Assembly (NCBI GenBank): GCA_964016885.1
Contig: OZ024753.1
Coordinates: forward strand, 10,788,001 to 10,852,000
Source of the DNA: Eledone cirrhosa
Taxonomy: Eukaryota
Direction of reading: 5' to 3'
DNA: 64,000 bases
Positions 14,324 through 57,187 of this stretch are shown here, one piece after another; position 1 is the first letter of the stretch, and the number at the start of each line of letters is the position of its first letter. The position numbers were made by a program, and so were the translations under genes. The notes under the pieces were generated by a model. It saw only the letters and a list, made by a program, of their open reading frames with translations, did no database searches and was not told the DNA's origin.

Positions 14324-14507
14324 AGGGAAAGAGTCAGCACCCCGACTGCTGAGCTCCAGCTGTTTTGACAGCTAGATCCAAACTCCTCGGATCTAGCTGT
14401 CAAGACGGCCGGAGCTCAGCCGTCGGGGTGCTGACTCTTTTCCTATTACTCACTCTACTACCTTTGAGTATCGAGTACTCTGGTATCTTACCACACTTTC
14501 TTTGTTA
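14324..14507 (+). mobile_element. Hairpin+tail insert, family 1 (putative Penelope-like pLTR remnant), divergent copy
   Basis: ~56-bp inverted arms around aaactcctc, then tail attactcactctactacc...gagtactc...; flanked by (TA)n. Confidence 0.65.
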
Positions 14508-14527
14508 TATATATATATATATATATA

Positions 14528-14733
14528 TAGGAACGAGTAAGACCCCGACGGCTGAGCTCAAGCCGTTTCGACGGCTAATTCTGGACAGAATTATGTCCAG
14601 AATTAGCCGTCGAAATGGCTTGAGCTCAACCATCGGGGTCCTACTCGTTCCTATTATCCATTCTACTACCCTACGTATTGAGTACTTTGGTGCGTTATGG
14701 CCCACCTGGTTTCTTACCACACTTTCTTTGTTA
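14528..14733 (+). mobile_element. Hairpin+tail insert, family 1
   Basis: ~60-bp arms taggaacgag...ctggaca / tgtccag...ctcgttccta, ~80-bp tail, in (TA)n directly after the previous copy. Confidence 0.7.
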
Positions 14734-14878
14734 TATATATATATATGCGTAGAAATATACATGACCCCCCCAGCAGACAACTGATGAAGGAAAATTTTCT
14801 CCCGTTCGTGCTTTCCTCTTATTTGTAAGTACACCTTATCCAGCAACTACACAGCCCCTGTTTCTTCTTATATATATA

Positions 14879-15218
14879 TCATCATCATCATGATTTTAGG
14901 TCCGCTTCTCCCTGCTTGCAAGGGTGGGACGGGAACTGATTCTGGCTTGATTTCTACAGCTGGATGCCCTTCCTAACACCAACCTCATTTACAGTGAGTG
15001 CTGGGTGCTTTTTTGCCGTGGCACCTCCACGACCACTTTACAGTGGAATGATAGGGACCCCAGTCTCTATCATCTCATTTCTACAGCTGAGTAAACTGGA
15101 GCAATGTGAAATAAAGTGTCTTGCTCAAGGAAGCAACACATCACCCGGTCTGAGAATTGAACTGACAACCTTTCGATTGCAAGGCCAATGCTCTAACAAC
15201 TAAGCCATGTGCCTCCAT
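14879..15218 (-). mobile_element. tRNA-headed SINE with Meta-like domain and (gat)n tail
   Basis: Minus strand: tggcttagttgttagagc...gttcaattctc...ggttggtgttaggaagggcatccagctgtagaaa...(gat)n. A 3' portion also at ~16035-16220 (+), a head at ~58897-59015 (+). Confidence 0.65.
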
Positions 15219-15591
15219 TATATATATACATACACACACACACACATATATGTGTGTGTGTATATATGCATAAATATTAATATATATATAGTGAGTGGGT
15301 GTAGAATATGGTGTGCTGGTGTTTGTAAAAGATGAAGCAGCTAAACAAACATTTTCTCAGTCTGTCAATTCTGTTGATTCCTAAAACCAAAGTTTGGTTG
15401 ATTATTATTTCTATGGGAGAGACGGATCACTTGTATAAACTTCCTCCTACATAGCAAAACCTCCCACATTTGACTTATCCCGTTTAATGGGGTACACTTT
15501 ATCATCATCATCATCATCATCATTGTTTATAAGCATGAAGTAGTAAACCCGAGATTGTACATCAATATACTCTCTGGACAGGAGGCAATGT

Positions 15592-55011: not shown

Positions 55012-55580
55012 TGCAACCTGTCCTATGGTAGGGTCATTGGCGACTAAACTGGCAACCCCACCAAGGTTTCTTGGTGAGGAGGGTGACTTTGGACATCCTG
55101 CAGGACTAAAAACAAAACCTGTCAAAGGGCAAAGGAGCTCTTAAGAGTCAATGGCCATCCAAAATCACCGGGAGAGATGACCCCTTAGCCTTTGTCAAGG
55201 CAGAATTCTAGAAGAAGGAAAACTCTGATATAACACCTGCATCCCTGATGGTATCCAATGATGTTGACTTGTTCTTCTTTTTGGTAAATATAATCTTGGT
55301 TAAGAGAGTGGGACTGGCTTTGTGCAGTGCCTTTGCTCACTATAAAAGCTTCACGGCACAGGCATTGCTTTATATCTGGAGATCTCTCTGCACTTGTCCT
55401 CACATGGTACCATGGGCCCAGCACTATGTGTCAATAATTGTCACAAGTGTAGTGTTTGTACCAGAGTTTTCAAGTCGCTGGCTGGACTAGAAAGTCACAC
55501 TCGTTCAGCACATCGGTGGGAGTTCTCCTACATGGATATAAAGTAGTGGCCGTACTCGAAAACGAGTTGGCAGCCACCAT
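55012..55580 (+). mobile_element. Non-autonomous RTE-derived element, near-identical copy with complete 3' end and (gtat)n tail
   Basis: KCSVCTRVFKSLAGLESHTRSAH; ends gtactcgaaaacgagttggcagccaccat. Partial copies at 46630-46848 (+) and 48527-48780 (-). Confidence 0.65.
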
Positions 55581-55904
55581 GTATGCATGCAAATATATAT
55601 GTATGTATGTATGTATGTATGTATGTATGTATGTATGTATGTATGTATGTATGTATGTATGAATGAATAGGTTTGAATCTGTGTCGTTTTAGTGATAACG
55701 TATAGAGGGAATTACATCGTTGTAGGGAGTCGGTTGATTATCTCCAACTTCGTCATCACTGCCATCATCATCATCGTCATCATCGTTATCATCATTTTCA
55801 TCGTCGTCGTCGTCGTCATCATCATCATTATTATCAGAATCGTCCTCATCAGGAATCAGGTTCCTAATCATCATCATCATTTCTCATTTTTTTTCCTTTC
55901 TTTT

Positions 55905-56083
55905 TCTTGTTGACGTCATCAGGTCGCTGAAATCTGGGGTCTTGTTGACGTCATCACGTCGCTGAAATCTGAGGTCTTGCTGATGTCATCACGTCGCTGA
56001 AATCTGGAGTCTTGTTGACGTCATCACGTCGCTGAAATCTGGGGTCTTGCTGATGTCATCACGTCGCTGAAATCTGGGGTCTT
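55905..56083. repeat. 35-bp tandem repeat x5, three with TGACGTCA
   Basis: cttgttgacgtcatcacgtcgctgaaatctggggt. Confidence 0.9.
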
Positions 56084-56990
56084 TATATCATTTATGCTAC
56101 ATTGCAAATAATAAAGATTCTTGATGTGTGGCTTTTATCTAACCATCGTTACTTGATGGTTTGGTGATGATGATGATGATGATGATGGTGGTGGTGGTAG
56201 TGGTGGTGGTAGTGGTGGTAGTGGTGGTGGTAGTGGTAGTGGTGGTGGTGGCGGCGGTAAAAGTGGTGGTCGTAGAAATGGAGGTAGTAGTAGGTATGGT
56301 TGTAATGGTGGTGGTAGTGGTGGTAGCTGGGAAGGTGGTGGTCAAAGGGATGGTTTTAATGGCAGTTGTCATAATGGTAGTAGTAGTAGTAGTAGTAGTA
56401 GTAGTAGTAGTAGTAGTAGTAGTAGTCCTTGTAATGGTGGCGGTCGTGCTTGTAAGTGTTGCTTGTGCTGGTGGTGGTGGTGGTTGTAAAAGTGGTGGCG
56501 GTTGTAAAGTGGTGGTGGTTGTAAAGTAATGGTCTTGGTGACTGTAAAGGTAGTCGAGATGGAGGGTTTGTGGTTTGTCCCGAGATGCGAGATAAACCAC
56601 AATCACTCCATCTCAATTCTACTTTTGAAAAGCATAAGAACTGTGAAACCGGTAAAGGAAATAAATAAATATTCTTAAAAAGACTTCAGTTGCATTTTCA
56701 CTTTCTTTTCCATATATATATATATATATATATATATATATATATATACAAATAGTGAAAACAATGAAATTAAACAAAATACGGGTAATTCATAGTAAAA
56801 CTCATTATTTTACGATCGTTTCTGGGGCGTAGTTCTCCGTATGTTCATTCTATTAGTGATCTATGTAAAATATATTACATATATAACATTTCAGATGCTA
56901 GTCCGTCATCAGAAGAAAGAATGGAAAATAAGATAGAGTGAAGGGACGAGCGGGTTGGAATTGGAAAAAATGTCTACATATATATGTATA

Positions 56991-57187
56991 TAGGAACGAG
57001 TAGGACCCCGACGGCTGAGCTCAAGCCATTTCGACGGCTAATTCTAGAGTCCAGAATTAGCCGTCGAAACGGCTTGAGCTCAGCTGTCGGGGTCCTACTC
57101 GTTCCTATTACCCACTCTACTACCCTAAGTATTGAGTACTTTGGTGTGTTATGGTCCACTTGGTTCTTTACCACATTTCCTTCGTTA
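56991..57187 (+). mobile_element. Hairpin+tail insert, family 1
   Basis: Arms taggaacgagtaggacccc...aattct / ...agaatt...ctcgttccta and same tail; TA-rich flanks. A tail-only remnant lies at ~59181-59243. Confidence 0.7.

Follow-up and report, generated by a model that had tools for sequence, protein, structure and literature searches.

Our aim was to understand what kind of element has left short, self-complementary inserts in a 64-kb stretch of Eledone cirrhosa DNA (the window), and how each insert was made. There are six such inserts, of 147-207 bp, and one remnant, all sitting in (TA)n (Table 1). An earlier note, made from the sequence alone, had placed them at 14324, 14528, 49294, 49683, 50343 and 56991; these are our copies 1 to 6, in that order. 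The inserts and remnant are present within 2-4 nt of those places. Copy 4, for which the note gave no strand, lies on the minus strand. TA-type sequence makes up 13 of 14 flanks, the exception being (TC)n 3' of copy 5. By comparison, (TA)6+ tracts with 10 nt to either side cover only 5.8% of the window. Neither target-site duplications nor a TT target are readable inside (TA)n. Copies 2, 4 and 6 are near-identical (subfamily A). The other three have 18-28 differences per ~60 arm columns from subfamily A and from one another, values that are upper bounds from an alignment with few gaps.

Table 1. Positions and parts of the inserts in the window. Element parts are given on copy 6.
Feature	Position	Strand	Remarks
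Copy 1	14324..14507	+	Divergent subfamily; fold-back 14324-14444; tail of 63 nt with internal deletion; tail hairpin 14452
Copy 2	14530..14733	+	Subfamily A; fold-back 14527-14654; centre GAATTA repeats part of arm; tail hairpin 14660
Copy 3	49295..49441	+	Divergent; without inverted arm; 5' end within fold-back-centre zone; tail hairpin 49370
Copy 4	49685..49891	-	Subfamily A; centre is an A/T-run
Copy 5	50347..50533	+	Divergent; tail hairpin 50461; 3' flank (TC)n
Copy 6	56993..57186	+	Subfamily A; coordinate reference for element parts
Copy 6, inverted tail-less arm	56990..57045	-	Outer end is a TAT equivalent to 57106-57108 and continues into (TA)n
AGTCCA zone, pile-up of arm 5' ends	57048..57053	+	Putative RNA start or stall point
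Hammerhead relic	57059..57088	+	AGCCGT-CGAA-ACGGCT hairpin; GAAA 57066-57069; without CTGANGA
Hammerhead relic, further marks	57086..57088	+	GTC triplet; alternative stem to 57087
TAT, -8 to -6 from tail hairpin	57106..57108	+	Candidate inner start of reverse transcription
Bulged tail hairpin	57114..57139	+	Also seen in Hydra-clade PLE 3' ends
Distal tail	57140..57186	+	End adjoins (TA)n; candidate outer start of reverse transcription
Remnant	59170..59243	+	Tail alone; 3' half of hairpin deleted

Five of the six copies are fold-backs with an unpaired tail, as the note had described. The inverted arm is 53-62 bp long, self-identity is 84-94%, and the tail (63-79 nt) is present at one end only. 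Folding of one copy gave z = -25 against 200 shuffles; a single arm plus tail has a stability near that of shuffles (z between -2.1 and +0.6). The outer end of the hairpin had been called equivalent among copies. In four of the five fold-backs the inverted arm does end at an identical TAT, 6 nt ahead of the tail hairpin, and in copy 1 it ends at the equivalent place with two substitutions. The centres vary in sequence and length from copy to copy, again as described, and copy 5 has no loop, its arms being joined at CG microhomology. All 11 arm ends lie within a ~10-nt zone around AGTCCA. In copy 4, the 5' end of the tail-less arm lies 5 nt beyond that of the tail-bearing arm. Within subfamily A, the two arms of a copy differ from each other at 1-4 positions and are no closer than arms of other copies. 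Hence, a separate origin of the fold-back at each insertion is supported by the centres alone. Note that the layout is not one of terminal inverted repeats at both ends of an invariant interior; the repeat is one-sided and the centre variable.

The tail arm plus tail of copy 6 was then matched to four sequencing runs. Matches were found in 13,471 contigs of run X1, 3 contigs of run X5, and 21,386 of 12,467,656 RAD reads in run X15. From these counts, and 6-7 copies per 64 kb, we estimate a genome-wide number of tens of thousands or more, bearing in mind that depth does not equal copy number. A fixed outer end is confirmed by 3408 RAD reads in which the match stops at 57108 and (TA)n follows. 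Before 57047/57048 there is no consensus among loose ends, with an agreement of 0.42-0.53 in X1, X4 and X15 for the best-supported ends; this describes the ends listed (there are 353 more) and reads other than those matching through the first base, and is compatible with a minority of long copies. A pile of 7212 read ends at 57055 falls on AATT, presumably the cut site of the restriction enzyme, and was set aside as a cut rather than biology. Rare reads join the inverted arm straight to the tail (57048/57049 to 57102). Since GAGT at the 5' end can pair with ACTC at 57097-57100, a short-repeat deletion or PCR skip is likely in these.

The note read each arm as the GAAA, stem III and GUC half of a type I hammerhead, with a palindromic TGAGCTCA loop. 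The strict GAAA-stem-GTC pattern occurs in 7 of 11 arms, compared with 0.01 expected by chance, while both copy 1 arms lack GAAA. The TGAGCTCA loop is a feature of the three near-identical copies and not of the others. A palindromic loop 3 has been described for the hammerheads of Penelope-like elements (PLEs) (PMC4209133). In the note's register, the half motif arose in 1 of 5000 shuffles with a 6-bp stem, in 20 with a 5-bp stem and in 61 with a 4-bp stem. A half-hammerhead by chance is unlikely, and the motif sits where relatives, described below, carry a complete hammerhead. The pairing is less clear-cut. Since AGCCGTC stands on both sides, the arm can also pair at equal energy (-8.0 vs -7.7 kcal/mol) into a rival hairpin with GAAA in its loop, and the consensus fold favours it. 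When copy 5 is aligned to the covariance model described below, this rival hairpin becomes stem II, the GAAGCTC that follows takes the place of a degraded second core box, and CTGATGA is deleted; GTC is unchanged in this register and the spacing is Hydra-like. With a scoring matrix, both registers score below zero; of the 11 arms, 5 favour the note's register, 4 the alternative and 2 neither. On the minus strand, the copy 1 centre reads GAGGAGT, in register with GAGT of copy 6, and this favours the note's register. We regard that register as slightly short of an even bet and the alternative as nearly as credible. A stem I pairing 57053-57058 with 57090-57095 was also considered, and rejected because it exceeded shuffles in just 2 of 8 arms.

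As the note had stated, CTGANGA is absent from every copy (pattern search of the six copies and the remnant). The full type I hammerhead descriptor had no match in the copies, and no hammerhead family was among the 150 listed of 414 Rfam matches, where microsatellite noise prevailed. Since CUGANGA is missing under either register, RNA of the inserts is predicted not to cleave. In sequence terms, the hammerhead is a dead relic.

The tail offers a second point of comparison. It opens with a bulged hairpin, RCTCTRC..GYATWGAGYAC, that is also found in published PLEs of the Hydra clade, which target (TA)n and carry a hammerhead ~100 nt from the 3' end (PMC8557442). The likeness was first spotted by eye in Hydra consensus ends, and the pattern used for scanning was written to fit both sides. 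In the PMC8557442 supplement, 2 of 6 Hydra consensus ends have the hairpin, two have looser variants and two stop ahead of it. With up to 3 mismatches allowed, a motif built from two published Hydra tails matches precisely the six copies in the window (a mean of 0.67 and a maximum of 3 matches in 30 shuffles); when units were shuffled, there were 0 of 5000 matches at up to 2 mismatches. This Hydra likeness depends on one 26-nt hairpin plus its spacing. A covariance model made from 16 metagenome loci alone ranks five window copies first, with rough E values of 0.0046-0.23, and the sixth copy ninth (E = 4). In the hairpin alignment 98% of cells are paired and 3 pairs have two-sided changes, figures inflated by pattern selection and relatedness. 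The copies also have TAT at -8 from the hairpin; the combination of the two is a criterion defined in this analysis, not a published one.

No Hydra-type ORF, with a reverse transcriptase (RT) and C-terminal GIY-YIG domain, is present in the copies or the window. Pfam found no RT and no GIY-YIG in 148 of the 173 window frames. However, Pfam misses full Hydra proteins too, so the decisive ORF test is a profile of 53 Hydra proteins, which had no match anywhere in the window. Hence, the inserts are not autonomous Hydra members. Their architecture is a described one: next to a PLE insertion lies an inverted, 5'-truncated copy, and a tail of 30-40 bp is present at one end (PMC8557442, Craig et al. 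2021). Here, an inverted 5'-truncated copy lies at the 5' end of five of the six copies, and the one-sided tail is longer than described. The note did not recognise a named family. To that extent it stands: no prior description of this family or its tail hairpin was found in the literature searched (Repbase, Dfam and most subscription papers aside), sequence words of the family did not occur in that literature or in the available part of the Craig et al. supplement (PMC8557442), and the available text of PMC8557442 has no mention of the hairpin. A Naiad parent was considered, since Naiad_Ovul carries the label 'HHR_half_core' and has (TA)n as its target. By eye, the 3' ends of Naiad_Obim and Naiad_Ovul, as far as available, are unlike the copies.

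The window has several other features. At 58636-58873 there is a second insert in (TA)n with a hairpin and tail, unrelated in sequence, with 86-bp arms (96.5% self-identity), an AT-rich centre and a ~70-nt tail ending in an A-run. It had no match to the Hydra model or motif and is possibly another PLE family. Outside TA tracts, palindromes lie at 4686-5061 and 4351-4524 (arms of ~190 bp at 91% and ~85 bp at 75%), and a stretch near 3900-4010 looks similar to them. Tandem arrays at 13432-14138 and 6521-7011, with units of 101 nt and 158 nt, resemble amplified SINE pieces. A minus-strand frame at 16516-16836, ~1.8 kb from copies 1 and 2, encodes a Frizzled cysteine-rich domain (Pfam Fz, E 1e-9) and is probably a host exon. 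Three short frames, 44811-44981 (+), 48591-48761 (-) and 55346-55543 (+), have a C2H2 zinc finger at the same position within the frame. They are probably copies of one dispersed repeat.

Relatives of the inserts were sought by scanning metagenome contigs for GAAAC plus the hairpin, with CTGANGA deliberately omitted from the pattern. At least 120 loci were recovered. Among the matches listed, CTGANGA is present in 63 of the 96 loci with at least 40 nt upstream (59 times at a 12-nt spacer), and the full type I descriptor fits 62 of 120. Part of the remaining loci look like chance matches. The Hydra profile matched 8 of the 120 listed loci. In six of these, the C-terminal end of a Hydra-type RT-GIY-YIG ORF lies upstream on the same strand; L111 has the start of a Hydra ORF downstream and L009 is arranged differently. 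Positions 1-690 of L111 hold, in order, a hammerhead, the tail hairpin, a short (TA)n and the Hydra ORF start, an order that reads as a tandem pLTR-ORF junction whose units are separated by the target microsatellite. In L017, the GIY-YIG ORF ends 217 nt upstream. A 93% relative of the L017 protein, P0001, is a 702-aa protein with an RT region that, by eye, is like Hydra-2_Amil. Exact patterns of the window family had no match in metagenome, viral or prokaryote contigs, nor did the hairpin pattern in viral contigs.

The same scan recovered fold-backs. An inverted arm is present in 39 of 89 listed loci with at least 100 nt upstream. We scored the two main families, with 53 listed loci that include 5 redundant rows and come mainly from a few assemblies. 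Here, 33 have an inverted arm and 23 of these 33 arms end 6-7 nt ahead of the hairpin. This offset is the same in window copies and relatives, and it was not part of the search pattern. Among the matches listed, 25 distinct contexts are linked to a hammerhead and 18 others are not; TAT occurs between -10 and -4 in 16 of the former and 4 of the latter. Tail arms begin at -32 to -25 in 27 of the 53 listed loci, around the A of TCATT in long copies, and we take this start region to resemble an initiator. Where listed relatives have an inverted arm, the tail-less arm is the longer in 10 of 33. CTGATGA has been lost from the tail arm in 13 of the 53. The note had proposed that reverse transcription stalls and switches template in hammerhead stem II. 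This finds no support in the relatives, where elements with an intact ribozyme form the same fold-backs and the centres are mostly upstream of the ribozyme. In L094, L077 and L027 the fold-back centre contains joins that are nested or repeated, and pieces of the hammerhead have been copied more than once. From the likeness to Hydra-2_Amil, the host of the short metagenome fold-backs would be a coral.

Loci fetched with the hairpin thus bring with them CTGANGA, Hydra ORFs and the same fold-back. For this reason, each insert is most likely a miniature copy of the 3' end of a Hydra-type PLE, and such copies are very abundant in the species. They are non-coding fold-backs matching Hydra-clade PLE 3' ends, and were likely inserted by an RT-GIY-YIG protein from an RNA of ~140 nt; we give this reading a probability of about 0.7. 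The Penelope-like, microsatellite-targeting origin proposed in the note is therefore supported, and the tail hairpin and related loci narrow it to the Hydra clade, of which the inserts are most likely a non-autonomous derivative. The observations establish the anatomy and abundance of the inserts, the common hairpin and arm end, and, in other animals, the association of this module with full hammerheads and with Hydra ORFs.

How might such copies form? We propose that the PLE endonuclease would nick both strands of (TA)n. Reverse transcription would begin at two internal sites of the RNA, the TAT just ahead of the hairpin and the end of the tail. Both cDNAs would reach or approach the RNA 5' end at ~57048, possibly the transcription start, and be joined head to head by microhomology or filler. 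Two starts followed by such a join would explain why the outer end is fixed, the tail one-sided and the centre variable. In this scheme the hammerhead, predicted to be inactive in the inserts, would be dispensable. The double start is carried over from work on another PLE: in vitro, the protein of that element nicks AT-rich DNA on both strands and extends them, two internal RNA start sites delimit the tail, and hammerhead cleavage is dispensable (PMC11167929). An internal promoter is known for Penelope (PMC2377424). More tentatively, and at somewhat less than even odds, the inserts could be a self-renewing, SINE-like family in which a 140-nt RNA has its own start site, has discarded its ribozyme and uses the hairpin to drive the double start, making a new 55-bp palindrome with each insertion at tens of thousands of sites or more. 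The architecture itself is already described for PLE insertions. In the available literature searched (Repbase and Dfam aside), we found no precedent for so small a size, for systematic core loss or for the conserved tail hairpin.

A Hydra-type origin could also yield such inserts if a longer parent, its hammerhead intact, gave rise to them repeatedly as 5'-truncated products, with reverse transcription stalling in stem/loop II and the cDNA snapping back on itself. GAAA with a 5-6 bp stem and UH is rare in shuffles (1-20 of 5000), the GAGGAGT of the copy 1 inverted arm resembles the ctgaggag-t of some Hydra hammerheads, the 13 listed relatives described above also lack CTGATGA in the tail arm, and self-priming has been proposed for PLE palindromes (PMC3846280). 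However, the long, non-inverted copies that the note predicted leave no common upstream sequence at the best-supported loose ends listed for 57047/57048 in four runs. The core is missing from 11 of 11 arms, across four subfamilies, while most relatives retain it, and stem III in the register of this explanation would be 18 nt, compared with 6-9 in relatives. Furthermore, tail-less arms that exceed tail arms, as in copy 4 and some relatives (10 of 33), exclude snap-back of a tail-bearing cDNA unless the centre was deleted later; such central deletions could be a source of unequal arms. On balance, we consider truncation unlikely.

A derivative of a DNA transposon, of MITE or Helentron/DINE type, would instead start from a palindromic master with a centre rearranged after insertion. 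The inserts are short, non-coding and very abundant, any duplications would be unreadable in (TA)n, and long palindromes tend to acquire central asymmetry. Even so, the inverted repeat is not terminal, copy 3 has none and begins in the centre zone, and the tail module is linked elsewhere to hammerheads and RT-GIY-YIG ORFs. This makes a DNA transposon very improbable. The note's other suggestion, a retrozyme, fares no better. Decay of a non-LTR retrozyme that spread via circular RNA would account for the type I hammerhead relic, retrozymes have been linked to PLE ends (10.64898/2026.07.22.740005), and ATATAT connects a tail end with an arm in a single contig of a single run. Yet there is no tandem array of the insert unit in the window, copies 1 and 2 are a pair from two subfamilies separated by (TA)n, no copy has a complete ribozyme, and the unit of ~140 nt compares with 220-400 nt in PMC7229834. 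We rate this the least probable origin.

The preferred reading, miniature copies of a Hydra-type PLE, can be set against known systems. Hydra-clade PLEs such as Hydra-2_Amil and Hydra-2_Ajap share with the inserts the (TA)n targets, the hammerhead position near the 3' end, the TAT followed by a bulged tail hairpin, the one-sided tail and the inverted 5'-truncated copy (PMC8557442). The inserts differ in having no ORF, a length of ~140 nt and no CTGANGA. Their arm is unlike the hammerhead listed for Hydra-1_Obim in that source, and so Hydra-1_Obim is not the parent. The metagenome fold-backs (L004, L040, L076, L078, L110 and others) have the same hairpin and tail layout, arm end and variable centre, with flanks that are also AT-rich (at least 85% AT in 34 of 48 among the matches listed). 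Unlike the inserts, most have kept their type I hammerhead complete, and the same data contain longer copies linked to an ORF. Poseidon PAc of Anolis is likened here by features, not sequence: two internal starts delimit its tail, its targets are also AT-rich, and hammerhead cleavage is dispensable for its insertion in vitro (Frangieh et al. 2024, PMC11167929). It belongs to another clade, is autonomous and has a tail of 30-40 nt, compared with 63-79 here. Non-LTR retrozymes are likewise non-coding and PLE-associated, but are tandem with active ribozymes (PMC7229834). Non-autonomous Chlamys elements such as MRC1 are also non-coding and PLE-associated, and form pLTRs and head-to-tail arrays rather than the head-to-head hairpins of the inserts (PMC8557442).

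The mechanism behind PLE inverted repeats with a one-sided tail was named as a next task in PMC8557442. The miniature copies reduce the cis-acting needs to ~140 nt, and single out one hairpin kept between distant animals, which stands at a constant 6-7 nt from where the inverted arm stops. This common tail hairpin would make the unusual copying mechanism of PLEs testable in vitro. The family also suggests that loss of the hammerhead is compatible with continued spread. Transcription of the inserts, if it occurs, would supply editing or small-RNA pathways with many near-perfect hairpins as substrates.
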